From a virus: a stretch of 51,347 bases of DNA. Below are positions 10,510 through 49,275 of this stretch, piece after piece; position 1 is the first letter of the stretch, and each line of letters begins with the position of its first letter. Under the pieces are notes generated by a model. It was not told the origin of the DNA. It did no database searches and saw only the letters and a list, made by a program, of their open reading frames with translations. The stretch lies in the UHGV virus genome UHGV-0208865. One strand, 5' to 3'. A program made the translations under genes and the position numbers.

Positions 10510-13500
10510 GTGGCAGACGAGTCAATCAAGATTGATATTGACGTTAACGCTGCTGGAGCAGACAAGGCAGCACAGAGCATTGGTGCCCTGGAAAAGCAGA
10601 TTGGTTCGCTTCAGAGTGCTGTCGCTGCACTGAAGGCACCCTCTGGCCGTGGTGGTTCTGTTCTTGATTCTTTGCAGCTCGACAGCTCGAAGGTCAAGAA
10701 CCTGAAGGACTCTGCATCTGCGCTGAAGTCTGTGGCTGATGCTCTTGGCTCACTGAATAAGGCTGCTGGTGACGCGAGTAAGGCTGATCTTTCGGCGGGT
10801 GTCGATAAGGCTGTTTCGGCGTATCGACAGTTCATCCGTGAGACTCGCACGATGAACAACCTGAGTAAGGACCATATCGCTAAGCTGAAGGATACTGCCT
10901 CGGCTATGCGTGAGGTGGCTTCTGCGTCTAATGCTATGGCTGAGGCTGAGACGAAGGCGAAGAAGGCCCAGGCTCAATTGAACCAGTCGCAGGCACGTAA
11001 GACTGAGGCTCAGGCTGAAAAGCTGCGTGCTCAGGCAAGTGTGAAGCGTGAGGATAATGCCATCCCCTTGCAGAAGCAGAGGGGTAAGGACGAGCGTAGC
11101 CTTGTGAAGGCGAAGGGTGCTGAGGCCACTCGTCTTGCTGAGATTCAGGCACTCACCGCTTTGGAGCAGGCAGAGATTAGGGCGGCTGCAACGACGGCTT
11201 CTGCTGAGTCTAAGCGTGAAGCTGCTGTTGCTAGTGCGTCTGCGCGTATTGGTGCTGCTCGTGAGGCTGAAGTTGCGCGTACTGAGCGTGCTCGTATCCG
11301 CGAGGAAGAGCTGACTAAGCGTACTGCTATTCGTTCTGATGCTAGTACCGCTCGCAATAACGCTCGTGCGAGTGAGAAGGCTATTGAGAACGTCCGTTAT
11401 GCTGCACGCGACATGGCCGTGTATTACGGTGCTATCACGGCTGGTATTGGTCGTGTTGTGTCGTCTGCTGCTCAGGCTGGTATTGCGCAGGAGCGCGCAT
11501 TTGCTGACGTGGAGCGTACCGCGCAGGGTACTACGAGGTCTCTTAGTGAACTGAAGAGCGCTTACACTGAGCTTTCGACAACAACTACCATGTCTTTTGC
11601 TGATCTGTCGAAGATTGGTACGCTCGGTGCGCAGATGAGCATCCCGACGAACAAGTTGAAAGACTTTACGAAGGCTGTCGCAGAGTTCTCTACTGTGACT
11701 GGTATGGAAGTTGAGTCGGCTTCTACCGCGTTTGGTCGTTTCGGTGAGATGATGGGCAAGCTGCAAGAGTCGGCACCCGGCAAGGGTGACGGCTACGCGG
11801 TCCTCGCTAACCAGATCGCTGACTTGGGCGCTAAGTCTGTTGCGACTGAGCCTGAGATTGCGAACATGGCTGTGTCGATTGCTGCTCAGGGTAAGTCGGC
11901 TGGCTTCACCCAGAATGAGATTCTTGCCCTGTCGTCTACACTGTCGTCGCTCGCTATTCCGAAGGAATGGGCGCGCGGTTCGCTTCAGCGTATCTTCAAC
12001 TCGATCAATGCCGCTGCCGCTGAGGGTGGCGACAAGATGCACACGTACGCCCAGGCTGTCGGTGTGACTGATGAAGAGTTCCGTAAGCTGTGGCAGGACG
12101 ACCCGAACAAGGTGTTCCAGGGTATCTTGCAGAACCTTGCAGGTATTGGTGACAAGGTTGAGAAGGCTCAGGCAATTAAGGACTTGGGCTTCAAGAACGT
12201 GCGTGACGTTGAATTGCTGTCTCGTATGTCGAACAGTGTCGGCCTGTATGTCGAACAGTTGAAGGAGGCTGAGAGGGCTTCTAAGGGCACGACGTTCATT
12301 GATGAGTCGATGAACGTCATCATGGATACCTTGTCGGCTAAGATTGAGGCTTTCCAGCACGCTTTGCAGAACGCGGGCGCTGCCATGAACTCTAGCTTCA
12401 TGGTGCCTTTCAAGCTGCTGATTACTCTTGCGACAGGTGTTGTTAACGCTTTCGCTAAGCTGCCAGCACCTATTCAGGCGTTTGTTGGTGCGCTCGCGGC
12501 TGTGGCGACAGTGCGTGTTGGTCTTATGGCTGCGAAGGCTGCGGCTGTGTCGATGTCTGCAACGTACTTGCAGATGCAAAACCGCATGTTGCAGGCGACA
12601 GGTGCGCAGAAAGCCTCGTGGAGTGTCGTGTGGCAGGCTATTCGTCAGGCTCAGACGGCTACTGTCCAGTATGATTCGGCCCTTGCTGCTAACGTGGGTA
12701 CGGCTAATGCCGCTGCTGCGGCTAATCAGCGCCTTGCTGCTGCGGATAACATGGTGGCTGCGGCTGCGGGTAAGGCTGCTGCTGCGAAGAGCGCTCAGAA
12801 CACTGCTCAAGTGGCTTCTGCTGGCGCGTCTGCTGCGGCTGCGGGTGCTCAGGTTGCGGCTGGTGCCGGTCAGGCTGTGGGTGCGTTGACCAAGCTGTCG
12901 TCTGTGGGTTCTGGCTTGATGTCGATGTTCGGCGGGCCGTGGGGTCTTGTCATTTCTGCTGCCATTACTGCTGTATCTGTCGGCGCTACATACCTTGGTG
13001 ATGCTTTCCAGGAGTCGTCGGCTAAGGCTGACGAATTTAAGAACGCTGTGGGCGGCTCTTCAGCTATTCTGAACGCTTTGGCTCAGGATACAAAGGAAGT
13101 CGGTAATGGCACACAGACTGGCTTTATGGAGCTGAACGCAGCGATTGAACAGAATGGTGAAGTTCTCACCTCTAACGGCCAGGCGCTTGGTTACTACATT
13201 GATAAGTCCGGTCAGGTTGTTCAGGCTACCCACGAGCAGGCCGAGGCAATGGGCTTCTCGACCTTGAAGATCGGTGAGCACACCCAAGCATTGATTATGG
13301 ATGCTGTTCAGGGGTCTGATGCCTTTAAGAACATGTCGAAAGAAACTAAGCAGGCCCTTGTCGATATGGGCTTCTCGTACGCTAAGTACATTAAGCTCGC
13401 GTCCACCTCTGAGGCTCAGGGTGGTGGTCAGAAGGCTGCTGATGCTTACGTGAACGGGTATATCGAGCAGATTAAGGCTCGCAAGGCTGACGCTGTTAAT

Positions 13501-19829: not shown

Positions 19830-20294
19830 CTATCTGGGCCACCCGTTGTCGAGTGTCCACTTGTGTTTCAGCTCGTGAACCAGGTAGTACACGAGGTGCC
19901 GGAAGGCATCACGGACATCGTTTGCGTCCTTGTAGCTCACATCTTTCCCTGTGAGCCACCATCCTAGGTTCTTCAGTGTCGCGTCCTTGACCAGGCCCTT
20001 GGCTTGTGCAGGTGTCTGGTAGTGGATGTCATCGACAAACCAGTCAAGGATTGCGTTCACCTTCACGGGGGTAAGGTCTGCTGTGAACTTGTTGGAAGGT
20101 CGCAGGTCGAACTGTTCAGCAACGACAGTAGCCTGCGGGTACTCGTCAAGGTAGTGCTTGATGAGTTCCGCTGTCTCGACATGTGTCGCACAGATGAACT
20201 GGTCGAAGTGTAGAATCTCCACCTCTTCTTCAACACGTGCCACAACGAGGCCGGTGTTCACACCGGGGTCAATTGCTATTACTGTCGTCGTCAT
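19830..20294 (-). CDS. RuvC-like Holliday junction resolvase
   Basis: Start MTTTVIAIDPGVNTGLVVARV (RuvC motif I-like IDPG), with RBS GGAGGAAGATAATG. 154 aa. Confidence 0.6.
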   Translation of the reverse strand: MTTTVIAIDPGVNTGLVVARVEEEVEILHFDQFICATHVETAELIKHYLDEYPQATVVAEQFDLRPSNKFTADLTPVKVNAILDWFVDDIHYQTPAQAKGLVKDATLKNLGWWLTGKDVSYKDANDVRDAFRHLVYYLVHELKHKWTLDNGWPR

Positions 20295-20562
20295 TATCTT
20301 CCTCCATCCAGTTTTCGGTGATGACTGCATATCCGGTACCCATGAGCCTGTTTCGGCCTGTCGGTGAGAGGCCACCAAAAATACCAGAGCGGAACTTTTT
20401 ACCGTCGATTGGTGTTTCTTCAGCTATCAGACAGTCTTGAAGGCATTGTTCCTTGACAGGGCACTCATTACAAAAAGCCCTCACAACTGTTTCGTAGAGT
20501 GTCGGGTCGTAGAACCATTCGGTTGGTGCTCCACTACAGGGTGCCTGCTTGTAGTCTGTCAC
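20269..20562 (-). CDS. whiB: WhiB-family (Wbl) transcription factor
   Basis: 97 aa. Four Cys in a C-x21-C-x2-C-x5-C arrangement (CSGAP...CNECPVKEQCLQDC) and an acidic tail. Typical of actinophages. Confidence 0.7.
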   Translation of the reverse strand: MTDYKQAPCSGAPTEWFYDPTLYETVVRAFCNECPVKEQCLQDCLIAEETPIDGKKFRSGIFGGLSPTGRNRLMGTGYAVITENWMEEDNDDDSNSN

Positions 20563-34497: not shown

Positions 34498-34604
34498 AGT
34501 TCTACCTTTCGGTGTCATTGTCGCTAACCACCTTGGTTAGCATCGTTCCCTAGGCACGGATCGAACGTGCATTTAACCTACCATTAGGCTAGGGATACCG
34601 TTGT

Positions 34605-34784: not shown

Positions 34785-34881
34785 GTTTGTGTCTCACTTT
34801 CTGTCGTTGGTTTGTAGGCTTTGTGCCTATGTTTCTAGTGTAGGTTGTTGATCTGTTGTTGTCAAGTTGTCAGAGTGTGTT

Positions 34882-36621: not shown

Positions 36622-36909
36622 TCACTTGTTGATTGACTTGGAAAGCGCGGTCAGTGCTGCAACAGCGGTGTTAGCCAAGTCACGGTCAAGGTGTCCGCGC
36701 AGCGATTCATCGTTGATCTTGCTCGACAGGTCGATCATATCGTGGAACAAAGCGTTAATACACTTTGCAGTGCGTCGTTCTTCGTGTTCGCGCCTAATCG
36801 CGCCTTTGCGTGCGCTATCGACAGGCAGAAAATAGCGTTCCTGGTAGTCGCGTTCGTATTCTGCGAGGCGTGCCATCGTTTCGTAATCACACGCGAACGA
36901 GGTTCTCAT
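36622..36909 (-). CDS. Hypothetical protein, first gene of the leftward early operon
   Basis: RBS CCGAAAGGAAGCCGAAAA-ATG. Promoter-like elements lie immediately upstream. Confidence 0.45.
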   Translation of the reverse strand: MRTSFACDYETMARLAEYERDYQERYFLPVDSARKGAIRREHEERRTAKCINALFHDMIDLSSKINDESLRGHLDRDLANTAVAALTALSKSINK

Positions 36910-36951
36910 TTTTCGGCTTCCTTTCGGGTTGTTTCGTTTGCCGATACTTAA

Positions 36952-36980
36952 AGATTAGTGGGTAGGGCGTACGTTGTCAA
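36952..36980 (-). promoter_or_regulatory. Leftward promoter candidate (TTGACA-17-TAATCT) with a conserved leader
   Basis: Minus-strand TTGACA (+ strand 36975-36980) and TAATCT (+ strand 36952-36957) with a 17-nt spacer. The leader CTAATCTTTAAGTATCGGCAAACGAAACAACC is repeated at 33639-33715. Confidence 0.45.
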
Positions 36981-37054
36981 CATGAAAACATGTGATTAGG
37001 GACACATTGTTTAATGGTGGTTGTTAGCGGGTATGGAATAAGGAACGCGTGCGC

Positions 37055-37083
37055 GTAATAGCACCTTAGTTATGAGTTGTCAA
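37055..37083 (-). promoter_or_regulatory. Second leftward promoter candidate (TTGACA-17-TATTAC)
   Basis: Minus-strand TTGACA at + strand 37078-37083 and TATTAC at + strand 37055-37060. Confidence 0.4.
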
Positions 37084-37508
37084 TAGCTAGGCTATGTGTT
37101 GTGTGCGACAGGCTGTTAGGGCTGTTTGTTAGCAAGGTGAGAGCGGCGGCCCTGGCAGTTTATACCCTGTAGGGAGTGAATGTCAAGGTTTTAGTGTGTG
37201 TCGTTGGTTATATTGTGGGGCGTGTCAAGACAGCGACAGGGCCGGGAGGGATAACTAGACATCTCATAATGTGGATAGTTTTTGTGTTCGTGTTGACTTT
37301 AGAGTGAGAGTATGTTACTCGCATGGGCATAGCGTGGCGATTAGGTGGGTTGGTGGGTGTGGGTAGTGTGTAGGACAGCGTTTAAGGGGTCTAGAAGCGT
37401 GTCTGAGCGTGTTTTATAGTGTGGGTGGTAGTGGGTAGCCTTGAGTGGGTGTTAGGGCGTTGTAGGGGGCGTAGCGTAAATGTCATGACAATTCAATAGA
37501 GGTAGGTA

Positions 37509-37540
37509 TGCATATTATGCACTCGGTTGCATAATATGCA
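37509..37540. repeat. Perfect 13-bp inverted repeat TGCATATTATGCA-ctcggt-TGCATAATATGCA (operator/cruciform candidate)
   Basis: Read directly from the sequence. Confidence 0.7.
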
Positions 37541-37543
37541 GTC

Positions 37544-37574
37544 CTCGCGCGTACGCAGCTACGCGAGCGTTTTT
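37544..37574 (+). terminator. GC hairpin plus T5, a terminator-like element for rightward transcription
   Basis: CTCGCGCGTA-cgcagc-TACGCGAG-cg-TTTTT. Confidence 0.4.
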
Positions 37575-37731
37575 AACTTTATTAATATATAAATAATAAT
37601 GATAATATAATAATAAAAAAATTAAGTATAGATATAGATAGTTACTAATAATGTTTATTAATGGTTGATATTACACGTTAATAAATTAGTTATTGTGTGT
37701 AAATAATATTCTTAGTACGTAGAAAAAATAG
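37575..37731. other. AT-rich island (about 160 bp, over 85% A+T) in a genome that looks GC-rich on inspection; candidate DNA unwinding element
   Basis: ttattaatatataaataataatgataatataataataaaaaaattaagtatagatatagatag... Confidence 0.6.
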
Positions 37732-37808
37732 GGGGGACTACGCGAGGCGAAAATTAGGGGCCGTTGGTTGTGTTGGTTGCTTGCAGTTGATGCTAGTTCG
37801 TTGCAGTT

Positions 37809-37826
37809 GGTTGGTTGGTTGGTTGG
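37809..37826 (+). repeat. (GGTT)4GG tract, a two-tetrad G-quadruplex motif
   Basis: ggttggttggttggttgg. Confidence 0.5.
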
Positions 37827-37855
37827 TAAGGCAGGGGTAAGCTAGGTTAGGTGAG

Positions 37856-37918
37856 GGGTAGTTAAGTTAGGTAAGCCTAAGTTAGGGGGAGGGTAGTTAA
37901 GTTAGGTATACCTAAGTT
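37856..37918. repeat. Two 28-bp direct repeats (35-bp period), each containing a TTAGGTA..CCTAA palindrome. Copy 2 has the perfect palindrome TTAGGTATACCTAA. Iteron/operator candidates.
   Basis: gggtagttaagttaggtaagcctaagtt / gggtagttaagttaggtatacctaagtt. Confidence 0.6.
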
Positions 37919-38218
37919 TTGTTAATGGGTTTGGGTCCGGGGTTAGGGTGGGTATGTTGTGATGCGCGTCTCAAAATTGGGTATGGGTTTGGGTCGGGTA
38001 TGCGTTAGGGGATATGGGGCCGATGGTTGGTAGGACGCGGGGAGTGTGCTTGACAGGCGGGTGATTCGGGGCGTTTTTGAGGCAACTAAAAAATCAAATG
38101 CTTAGTAAGTGTAAAGATGGAGTGGGGTGTCATACCAGTTTGTGTATCTGGGATGTACTGGCACATACCCGTTTGTGCATACCCCTCAATAGAGTGGGTC
38201 AGATCACACGCTATCTTG

Positions 38219-38247
38219 TTGACTTTAACCGTCTATCCTTCTATGCT
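38219..38247 (+). promoter_or_regulatory. Rightward promoter candidate (TTGACT-17-TATGCT) for the operon starting at 38281
   Basis: TTGACT 38219-38224, TATGCT 38242-38247. Upstream direct repeats CATACC(A/C)GTTTGTG at 38133 and 38164. Confidence 0.5.
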
Positions 38248-38280
38248 TAAAACATTAACACCAAACGCAAAGGAGAAATC

Positions 38281-38520
38281 ATGGACGACCTACTGAACAC
38301 TAAGTTTTGTATCTCAACAGGCCATTGGATCACTTACGAGTGCCTACTTGATACCGGCACCGTCGTACACTTGCAAAAGCCCAGCAATAAAGTATGGATG
38401 CTCAACCACGACAAGCAGTGGGTGAACTGCAATGGTGAAAGCATCACAATCGAAGATATGCTGCAACGCATTGAACAACCCAACCAGGTTGTCGAAGTTA
38501 TCTACAGCCCTCACGTCTAA
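38281..38520 (+). CDS. Hypothetical protein
   Basis: RBS CAAAGGAGAAATC-ATG. Confidence 0.5.
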   Translation: MDDLLNTKFCISTGHWITYECLLDTGTVVHLQKPSNKVWMLNHDKQWVNCNGESITIEDMLQRIEQPNQVVEVIYSPHV

Positions 38521-44298: not shown

Positions 44299-44383
44299 CC
44301 CCTTGTGGCGGAATAGGCAGACGCGCTCGACTCAAAATCGAGTTCCGAAAGGAGTGTGAGTTCGATTCTCACCGAGGGGACCA
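44299..44383 (+). tRNA. tRNA-Leu (anticodon CAA), type II with a long variable arm, CCA encoded
   Basis: Hand fold. Acceptor CCCCTTG/CGAGGGG, anticodon stem CTCGA/TCGAG with loop CTCAAAA, T-arm GTGAG-TTCGATT-CTCAC, 3' ACCA. Confidence 0.65.
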
Positions 44384-44547
44384 CCAAGCACCGGACGATG
44401 CTGGATGATTAGGCCATAGCCGCCTGCCGCTCTGATCAAGCGGACGTGCCGGTTGCCGTGACGGGGGTCACGTGCGGGGTAGCACCCTAGGACTGACAAT
44501 TTTTGTGTGATGGTTTTTGTTTCGTCAGTCAACAGCACCCCTTCTAA

Positions 44548-44620
44548 CGGAATGTAGCGCAGTAGGTAGCGCACCTGGTTTGGGACCAGGGGGTCGTGAG
44601 TTCGAGTCTCACCATTCCGA
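44548..44620 (+). tRNA. tRNA-Pro (anticodon TGG)
   Basis: Hand fold. Acceptor CGGAATG/CATTCCG, D-arm GCGC-agtaggta-GCGC, anticodon stem CCTGG/CCAGG with loop TTTGGGA, T-arm GTGAG-TTCGAGT-CTCAC. Confidence 0.7.
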
Positions 44621-44677
44621 CGTTGCACATGTGTAACACCTAGTTCCCAGGTGTCCTCCGGGACTACCTGGGTTTAA

Positions 44678-44748
44678 TCCCAGATAGTGTAATGGTAGCA
44701 TGGCAGGTTTTGGCCCTGTCGGACTAGGTTCGAGTCCTAGTCTGGGAG
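44678..44748 (+). tRNA. tRNA-Gln (anticodon TTG) candidate
   Basis: Hand fold. Acceptor TCCCAGA/TCTGGGA, anticodon stem GCAGG/CCTGT with loop TTTTGGC, T-arm CTAGG-TTCGAGT-CCTAG. The D-stem is weak. Confidence 0.5.
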
Positions 44749-44836
44749 CGCTTGACGATGAGGTTGCTCGATAGCACAAAGTGTCTCGACCAAGACACCC
44801 TCATCGAACGGCTGGGTTGCCCTGGTCAGGTAACAA

Positions 44837-49029: not shown

Positions 49030-49275
49030 ATGAACATCAACGTCTACTCCAAGCCCAATTGCCCGCAGTGTACGGCGACGTACCGCAAGCTGAAGGCGCT
49101 TGGACTGCCCTTCAATAGCATCGACGTGACGGAAGATGCTGATTCGCTGGCATTTATCCGCGCACTGGGTTATCAGCAAGCACCTGTTGTTGTCGTGCGC
49201 GAAGGCGCGCAAATTAAGGAACACTGGTCCGGGTTCCGACCGGACCTACTGAAGAAGTATGAGGTGAAAGAATGA
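49030..49275 (+). CDS. nrdH: NrdH-like glutaredoxin (CPQC active site)
   Basis: 81 aa. KPNCPQCTAT motif. Confidence 0.7.
   Translation: MNINVYSKPNCPQCTATYRKLKALGLPFNSIDVTEDADSLAFIRALGYQQAPVVVVREGAQIKEHWSGFRPDLLKKYEVKE

Follow-up and report, generated by a model that had tools for sequence, protein, structure and literature searches.

What binds a pair of direct repeats, each built around a palindrome, that lies in noncoding DNA of a phage genome, and what could such binding do for the phage? We addressed this question in a virus genome of 51,347 nucleotides (UHGV-0208865), which we refer to as the window. A preliminary description of its sequence had drawn attention to a (GGTT)4GG tract, two copies of TTGCAGTTG and two near-identical 28-bp repeats, one of them with a perfect palindrome, and its coordinates for all of these elements are borne out. 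The TTGCAGTTG copies start at 37781 and 37801, and the 28-bp repeats occupy positions 37856-37883 (copy 1) and 37891-37918 (copy 2) of the + strand, with an identity of 26/28 and a period of 35 bp. Tandem Repeats Finder (TRF) reports a 35-bp unit in 2.4 copies at 37836-37918, with a score of 117. Each repeat contains a 19-mer that we treat as a candidate iron box, for reasons given below: box 1 is TTAAGTTAGGTAAGCCTAA at 37862-37880, with the core TTAGGTAAGCCTAA at 37867-37880, and box 2 is TTAAGTTAGGTATACCTAA at 37897-37915, where the core is the perfect palindrome TTAGGTATACCTAA at 37902-37915. In the whole window an exact TTAGGNNNNCCTAA occurs at 2 places only, which are the two dyads. Since ~0.05 such matches are expected per window, the occurrence of the dyad exceeds chance; the second copy is a local duplication and does not count as an independent event.

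The window is a siphovirus-type phage genome. Its + strand carries the terminase, portal, capsid and tape-measure genes, and its - strand carries those for DNA polymerase A, a primase, Sak4, a Cas4-type exonuclease and a helicase. Several features place the host among the Actinobacteria: a WhiB gene (20269-20562) and a mycobacteriophage VG64 domain, both actinobacterial markers, a primase whose relatives occur in phages of Arthrobacter, Microbacterium and Gordonia, and an endolysin of the amidase type that carries choline-binding repeats. A search of bacterial genomes with the endolysin returned only near-identical whole-phage contigs, binned in oral Rothia, Atopobium and Actinomyces MAGs, a result that is ambiguous for the host. 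Pfam and PHROGs searches found no integrase, repressor or DtxR-like protein among the ~86 ORFs. We describe the phage as a virulent-looking siphovirus of oral Actinobacteria. Most of its early genes are without annotation, and an Rfam scan of the whole window found three tRNAs and nothing else. The gap around the repeats, together with 25 kb of the window, had no DNA match in 50,697 records of isolated phages.

That gap, a point missed in the preliminary description, is an ORF-free region of 1.37 kb (36910-38280 on the ORF map) between divergent early operons, and the repeats lie inside it. The leftward genes begin at 36909 and the rightward genes at 38281, with small genes diverging from the gap. 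On its + strand G outnumbers C to an extreme degree, with a GC skew of +0.4 to +0.7 on both sides of an AT-rich core; between 37001 and 38000, GGG occurs 45 times as against 2 for CCC. This strand bias is kept in 12/12 family members examined. The core (37571-37725) is 85% A+T and contains weak promoter-like matches only; in the relatives its composition is conserved but its sequence is not. At 37776-37821 on the + strand TRF finds 4.8 copies of a GT-rich unit (approximately GTTGCAGTTC or ATGCTAGTTC) with a 10-bp period. This array includes both copies of TTGCAGTTG, which had previously been noted without recognition of the larger pattern, and alignments show that it is conserved across all relatives, including those that have no boxes. 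At 37959-37973 there is a degenerate copy of a second palindrome conserved in the family, GTGAC-N4-GTCAC, which is perfect in one related contig (L042, GTGACCCGGGTCAC). A TTGACA hexamer on the + strand (38050-38055) is invariant in all 13 aligned members and has no conserved -10 element at 16-18 bp. The gap also holds GTGTCATACC and CATACC repeats, plus a hairpin with a terminator.

The gap is thus a dense control region, and the repeats are one module among several conserved elements. Its two conserved early promoters lie near its borders. The rightward one, TTGACT-17-TATGCT (38219-38247, + strand), precedes the first + strand gene by 33 bp and lies ~300 bp downstream of box 2, and the leftward one (36952-36980, - strand; -35 TTGACA at 36980-36975, -10 TAATCT at 36957-36952) serves the first - strand gene. 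Over 12 family members the promoter-like sites that a consensus scan finds to be conserved or recurrent are the proximal rightward promoter, the leftward TTGACA promoters and the weak matches in the AT-rich core. In none of these 12 members do the boxes overlap or adjoin a promoter-like site, as judged by eye and by the consensus scan, and in the window the scan finds none within ~130 bp of them; for Actinobacteria, consensus prediction is weak evidence on both counts. Contig ends cluster near the gap, and we considered reading it as a packaging site; the terminase genes are ~14 kb off.

Are the repeats kept in other phages? It had been proposed to look for them in related genomes and to count the copies. 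IMG/VR yielded over 20 related contigs, each about 50 kb long (those named here carry L numbers), and the repeats are kept in them, mostly as pairs: nearly all of these contigs have the dyad pair at the corresponding position. The spacing of the dyads is 34, 35, 48, 54 or 55 bp among the relatives and is not helically phased. Copy number varies as well, with a single dyad in L002 and L008, only a degenerate copy in L005, and an additional pair in L012 and L007 (four boxes in all in L012), which lies across the AT-rich core, in the gap's left half. Across 28 distinct sites the arms TTAGG and CCTAA are invariant, whereas the 4-nt centre comes in 12 variants and the DNA around the boxes drops to 65-70% identity, with indels. 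With arms held invariant in more than 20 contigs despite this variable centre and surroundings, both dyads show the conservation pattern of sites bound by a protein. The suggestion that they form a multi-site operator therefore holds in its general sense. As to the binder, for which assays with the early gene products had been proposed, we judge host DtxR/IdeR to be likelier than an early phage protein.

In the DtxR/IdeR proteins, each monomer reads one CCTAA pentamer and two dimers sit on opposite faces of the box. These proteins are the main iron regulators across Actinobacteria, where they share one consensus (PMC8464063), the iron box 5'-TTAGGTTAG(G/C)CTAACCTAA-3' (PMC1382209, PMC4598388). 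Marcos-Torres et al. determined a KD of ~78 nM for one IdeR dimer on a half box and proposed a 14-bp one-dimer consensus, TTAGGNNNNCCTAA (PMC8464063). Both dyads in the window match this 14-mer exactly (37867-37880 and 37902-37915). To the full box they match at 15/19 positions, and some relatives reach 16-17/19.

The same likeness appears when the window is ranked with weight matrices. A matrix based only on 31 DtxR sites from C. glutamicum that were differentially expressed and band-shift tested (Brune et al., PMC1382209) places 37897-37915 first (20.4 bits) and 37862-37880 second (20.1 bits) among 51,329 positions. Validated C. glutamicum sites, scored by leave-one-out, range up to 20.9 bits, with the median at 15.3 and the 75th percentile at 17.1; both boxes thus fall in the top quartile, here among Corynebacterium sites. 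A score of at least 20.1 bits was reached in 0/200 simulations of the whole window and in 0/2000 simulations with the composition of the gap. An independent matrix from 27 C. diphtheriae sites (75th percentile 17.0 bits) again ranks the two boxes at the top, box 1 first with 17.9 bits and box 2 second with 17.7 bits, and here 2/2000 simulations did as well. The third-best match of the C. glutamicum matrix (34584-34602, 12.8 bits) is weak and not near the consensus. As a negative control, no position in the 46-kb genome of Rhodococcus phage WC1 scores above 10.1 bits.

In fact, the likeness extends beyond the dyad. A TTAAG/TTAGG pentamer stands 5 bp upstream of it, in the register of a second dimer. 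The flank pentamer averages +3.1 bits in the family, -1.1 bits in 221 sites of unrelated viruses that share the core, and -3.0 bits in random pentamers (MWU p = 3e-9, a value that overstates independence because the family sites are phylogenetically related). The window boxes have three good pentamers and a poor fourth, and most boxes of the family likewise carry three of the four. All four are present in L032, L120, L042 and L105, in which the near-perfect boxes TTAGGTAAGCCTAACCTTA (L032/L120) and TAAGGTTAGGCTTACCTAA (L042/L105) match at 17/19 positions and score 25.3-25.5 bits. The site of L001/L010/L014 that is homologous to box 2 is TTAGGTTAGGTATACCTAA, with 22.2 bits, and in L004 the left pentamer is weaker (TTAAC) but the right one is better (CTTTC). 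The bases after CCTAA (G, then TT) are conserved although the DtxR consensus does not demand them. The position of the boxes is atypical for DtxR repression: they do not lie over a -10, -35 or start site, nor just upstream of a -35, and the nearest conserved promoter is ~300 bp away.

A BLAST probe made of two consensus boxes led to a further case, the Rhodococcus phage Trina. Its noncoding left end holds five iron-box-like 19-mers with an exact 20-bp period (296-394), scoring up to 23.7 bits and matching at up to 17/19 positions, and four further ones lie at 2727-2834. A similar array is present at 283-341 in phage NiceHouse, which has 38% of gene content in common with Trina. Both phages are virulent and have 5.3-kb terminal repeats, and the paper that describes them makes no mention of iron, IdeR or DtxR (PMC13313380). 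Our literature search found the control of prophage tox by DtxR; it found no iron boxes in early or terminal regions of lytic actinophages.

Could the repeats instead be something else than binding sites of a regulator? One possibility is that they are iterons, as had been raised in the preliminary description, and belong to a replication origin where an initiator binds and the adjacent AT-rich core melts. The setting invites it: the core is a ~150-bp stretch 140-190 bp to the left of the repeats, as an unwinding element should be, transcription changes direction at this site, and a separate 10-bp phased array lies between core and boxes. Lambda-type iterons also hold internal dyads. However, there are two copies only, where three or more at regular spacing are expected, and their spacing among relatives (34/35/48/54/55 bp) has no helical phase. 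Close relatives differ in copy number, down to one in L002 and L008 and essentially none in L005, and the extra pair of L012 and L007 lies across the AT-rich core. Nor is there an adjacent Rep/O-like initiator, the primase, helicase and polymerase genes being 7-17 kb from the repeats. With two copies, variable unphased spacing and no initiator gene next to them, the iteron proposal is not supported, and we regard such a role as very improbable. It is less probable still that these features act as nucleic-acid structures, with a G-quadruplex (G4) formed by (GGTT)4GG and RNA or DNA hairpins formed by the palindromes serving as terminator, antiterminator or processing sites. The motifs do exist: (GGTT)4GG (37809-37826), a two-tetrad G4 motif, is contained in a (GTTG)5.5 run at 37806-37827 (+ strand, TRF), copy 2 is followed by the T-rich run GTTTTGTT, and just downstream lie two canonical three-tetrad G4 motifs (37927-37952 and 37979-37998, + strand), absent from the preliminary description and without a counterpart elsewhere on either strand of the window. 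But no G4 motif is conserved. The GGTT tract, which had been noted as such a motif, recurs in just one relative (L010 = L017), while the others have different sequence or a deletion at its place, and a conserved G4 function for it is not supported. L003/L004/L006/L009/L010 lack the canonical G4 motifs. The hairpins are weak, at -3.3 to -6.9 kcal/mol over both repeats and strands; copy 2, with z = +0.39 and -0.43, folds no better than shuffled sequence, and RNA folding of the 341-nt region 37720-38060, which takes in the GGTT tract, gives z = -0.01. Their stems show no compensatory changes; it is the arms that are invariant and the loops that vary. With weak hairpins, z values near 0 and no Rfam match, we rejected the RNA-structure reading.

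The main rival to a host iron regulator is a phage-encoded binder: the dyads would be operators of an unrecognised dimeric regulator, possibly a small early protein, and their likeness to iron boxes would be a coincidence. In fact, IMG/VR contains 119 stretches with two TTAGGNNNNCCTAA sites 10-40 bp apart, against an expectation of ~2; their spacing has modes at 34 and 49 bp, and ~100 of them are unrelated to the phage family and range from 24 to 66% GC; two boxes of at least 17 bits are present in only 9 of the unrelated stretches. In L028, a low-GC locus that recurs among them, a cI-like gene (HTH plus S24 peptidase) and a cro-like gene flank the pair, which is an ordinary operator there. 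As tandem dyads are common in unrelated viruses and occur at such a cI/cro locus, the bare dyad is not diagnostic. Phage regulators can use this motif, scores of 17-20 bits are within reach of chance in the flanks, the G-T-T after CCTAA is unexplained by the DtxR consensus, and the many early genes without annotation leave room for such a protein. Nevertheless, we consider a phage regulator unlikely. No HTH, RHH or repressor-like gene flanks the gap, where the ORFs have no family matches, and the only HTH signal is a sub-threshold HTH_17 match 12 kb away; the sites are off promoters, unlike classical operators; and the extra pentamer at an offset of 5 bp and the full 17/19 boxes would be unexplained if the binder were a simple dimer that sits on the 14-bp dyad. 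The lack of a DtxR-like protein encoded by the phage we count in favour of a host binder. A different alternative accepts host DtxR/IdeR as the binder but makes the boxes a decoy: replicating genomes would titrate the repressor, so that iron uptake is derepressed and ferritin lowered, with iron made available for the phage WhiB Fe-S protein and for nucleotide metabolism. Boxes far from promoters would fit this, as would the multi-copy 20-bp-period arrays of Trina and NiceHouse, which each genome carries twice, in its terminal repeat and at a long distance upstream of genes. Infection by actinophage WC1 is reported to evoke a host response like that of an inactive IdeR, with importers up and bacterioferritin and VIT down (PMC10986025). 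We rejected decoy boxes as the cause of that response, since WC1 has no boxes and its response thus needs no decoy. The low number of boxes, two per genome here and four in L012, speaks against the decoy, and we rate it as improbable, more so than the phage-encoded regulator.

We therefore return to host DtxR/IdeR as a regulator acting through the repeats, a proposal that we hold to be probable by a little: the two 28-bp repeats would be tandem iron boxes with a regulatory role. What the analysis shows is the agreement with the family consensus, the rank of the boxes in the window, their conservation and the actinobacterial markers; from these we infer the binder, and every functional consequence that follows is conditional in the same way. 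Each repeat would offer a perfect one-dimer site, TTAGG-N4-CCTAA, and a third TTAGG-like pentamer in the register for a double dimer. In an iron-replete cell, metal-loaded DtxR/IdeR of the host would occupy both boxes, which have the AT-rich core on one side and the rightward early promoter on the other, and their occupation could make early expression dependent on iron. The effect could have either sign, with repression, activation or titration all possible. Promoter occlusion is unlikely because no promoter overlaps the boxes. The bound repressor might instead act as a roadblock to transcripts that run from the AT-rich core toward the rightward genes; it might work by upstream activation or anti-silencing, as at bfrA/bfrB/ftn; or it might be titrated by the replicating phage genomes. 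The extra pair of L012 lies ~25-80 bp upstream of a leftward TTGACA hexamer, a location that would suit upstream activation or anti-silencing.

What would this mean for the phage? If the boxes bind DtxR/IdeR, a phage of lytic type would wire its own early control region, or the iron regulon of its host, to the iron sensor of the host. This would provide a concrete mechanism by which iron availability shapes infection in iron-limited habitats such as the mouth, and it would also account for the conserved noncoding arrays in isolated Rhodococcus phages. More speculatively, we envision that virulent actinophages of several lineages (the oral family, Trina and NiceHouse) carry tandem or arrayed DtxR/IdeR sites in their early or terminal noncoding DNA, where these may gate infection on iron or, as replicating decoys, induce the iron-starvation mode of the host. 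That this is a general and so far undescribed phage strategy is a tentative idea, and we think it rather doubtful as yet. In any case, annotation pipelines for actinophages could usefully scan for boxes of host regulators.

How do the repeats compare with systems that are already understood? Their likeness to lambda-type and plasmid iterons lies in dyad-bearing direct repeats near an AT-rich stretch, and it ends there, as the phage repeats are only two, unphased and variable in copy number, with no initiator gene. The cI/Cro operators of L028 share with them the bare 14-bp TTAGG-N4-CCTAA, in tandem and with similar spacings. However, the L028 sites lie between divergent repressor genes and over a promoter region, whereas the boxes of the window have no flanking repressors and their flanks are in DtxR register. 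In sequence the repeats resemble the actinobacterial DtxR/IdeR boxes (19-bp TTAGGTTAGSCTAACCTAA), with an exact 14-bp match, 15/19 positions here and up to 17/19 in relatives, and the same pentamer register. Unlike those boxes, the phage boxes are not upstream of an iron-metabolism gene, are off promoters and mostly have three of four pentamers.

Two systems under iron control share features of architecture or setting with the repeats. At bfrA and bfrB of M. tuberculosis, tandem upstream boxes for IdeR are required and activation is iron-dependent (PMC4598388), and at ftn of C. diphtheriae three upstream boxes for DtxR mediate iron-dependent activation as well (PMC13001254). As in the phage, several tandem boxes stand upstream of a promoter, but those boxes lie within ~100 bp of the transcription start and the one adjacent to the -35 suffices, whereas here the nearest conserved promoter is ~300 bp away. 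The other system belongs to phages themselves. Host iron repressors control toxin cargo genes of temperate phages, tox through DtxR and stx1 through Fur, so that boxes for such repressors on phage DNA are already known. In the tox operator of corynephage beta, a DtxR box on phage DNA represses the diphtheria toxin gene (PMC13001254), and the likeness to our case is that of a host iron-repressor box, here a candidate one, carried by a phage. The tox operator belongs to a temperate phage and is a single box that overlaps the promoter of a toxin gene carried as cargo, whereas the boxes described here are in tandem, in an early control region and remote from promoters, in a genome with no detected integrase or repressor. 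What is new here is thus their place and their arrangement.

Over the ORF-free control region (36910-38280), the + strand carries an extreme excess of G over C on both flanks of the AT core, with a skew of +0.4 to +0.7 and a GGG:CCC ratio of about 45:2 per kb. All 12 family members examined share this bias, although transcription runs outward from the gap in both directions. The AT core is bordered on its left by a + strand hairpin with 18-nt arms (37504-37521 and 37528-37545) and a TGCATATTATGCA motif, directly followed by a stem and T-run resembling an intrinsic terminator (37548-37575, + strand). Judged by sequence, this arrangement (37504-37575) implies that a rightward transcript would terminate at 37548-37575; this transcript possibly comes from a small noncoding RNA unit within the G-rich left part of the gap.

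The AT core is separated from the iron-box-like sites by a GT-rich array of 10-bp period (37776-37821), built from three to five units close to GTTGCAGTTC or ATGCTAGTTC. Every relative has this array, including L005, a family contig that lacks good boxes, and it may constitute a separate binding array. On the other side, 45-60 bp 3' of box 2, stands a second palindrome conserved in the family, GTGAC-N4-GTCAC (37959-37973), which is perfect in the related contig L042 (GTGACCCGGGTCAC) and degenerate in the window (GTGATGCGCGTCTCA). Just 3' of the 28-bp repeats, on the + strand, there are also two canonical three-tetrad G4 motifs (37927-37952 and 37979-37998; G3+ runs, loops of at most 7 nt), and the 51-kb window has no others on either strand. 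Each lies in one copy of a 26-bp repeat that starts with TTGGGT and ends with TATG (37931-37956 and 37977-38002); the two motifs are missing in the relatives L003, L004, L006, L009 and L010.

Further right, three conserved elements precede the proximal early promoter (38050-38055, 38090-38101 and 38127-38186). The TTGACA at 38050-38055 is invariant in 13 aligned members, but no -10 is conserved at 16-18 bp from it. The conserved AAAATCAnATGC lies 35 bp beyond, and then comes an invariant GTGTCATACC followed by CATACC-containing repeats in variable number (CATACCnGTTTGTGnAT twice, with a 33-bp period).

Roughly half of the full-length family contigs have an end in the gap or no more than about 2.5 kb away from it (tallied from the coordinates of L002, L003, L006, L007, L012, L032, L042, L105 and L120), which exceeds the expectation from random cutting of a 51-kb circle. 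The region may hold the physical genome ends or be one that breaks assemblies. Elsewhere, the phage genes include one for a WhiB-like Fe-S transcription factor, adjoining the DNA polymerase gene (20269-20562, - strand), one for a glutaredoxin (49030-49275, + strand) and three for tRNAs, Leu-CAA, Pro-TGG and Gln-TTG (44299-44749, + strand).

Outside the locus, the next-best iron-box matrix match in the window is a weak one, TTAGGCTAGGGATACCGTT (34584-34602, 12.8 bits), found in L005 too; the same small gap contains an internal leftward promoter-like site, TTGACA-17-TACACT (34837-34865). In the relatives L012 (about 12403-12457, reverse strand) and L007 (1093-1152), the left half of the gap contains an additional pair of iron-box-like dyads in place of the window's sequence at that position. 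These pairs score 15-17 bits with 41-bp spacing; relative to a leftward TTGACA hexamer, they lie about 25-80 bp upstream.

Tandem TTAGGNNNNCCTAA also occurs in about 100 viral contigs that are not related to the family (IMG/VR loci L024-L133; GC 24-66%), where spacings of 34 and 49 bp are preferred. L076 is one example; in L028 the tandem sites are cI/cro operators, and other contigs bear arrays of such sites: four at 24 bp (L053, 23.5 bits each, GC 24%), five at 29/30 bp (L060) or a 15-bp period (L047, GC 47%). Arrays of DtxR/IdeR-like 19-mers, not mentioned in the paper describing these two phages, are likewise present in Rhodococcus phages Trina (NC_042040.1; 296-394 and 2727-2834) and NiceHouse (MT521992; 283-565). 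Both phages are virulent. Their arrays, with 19-mers of up to 23.7 bits and 17/19 consensus matches, have a period of exactly 20 bp and lie where the 5.3-kb terminal repeats begin, in noncoding DNA that carries no annotation.
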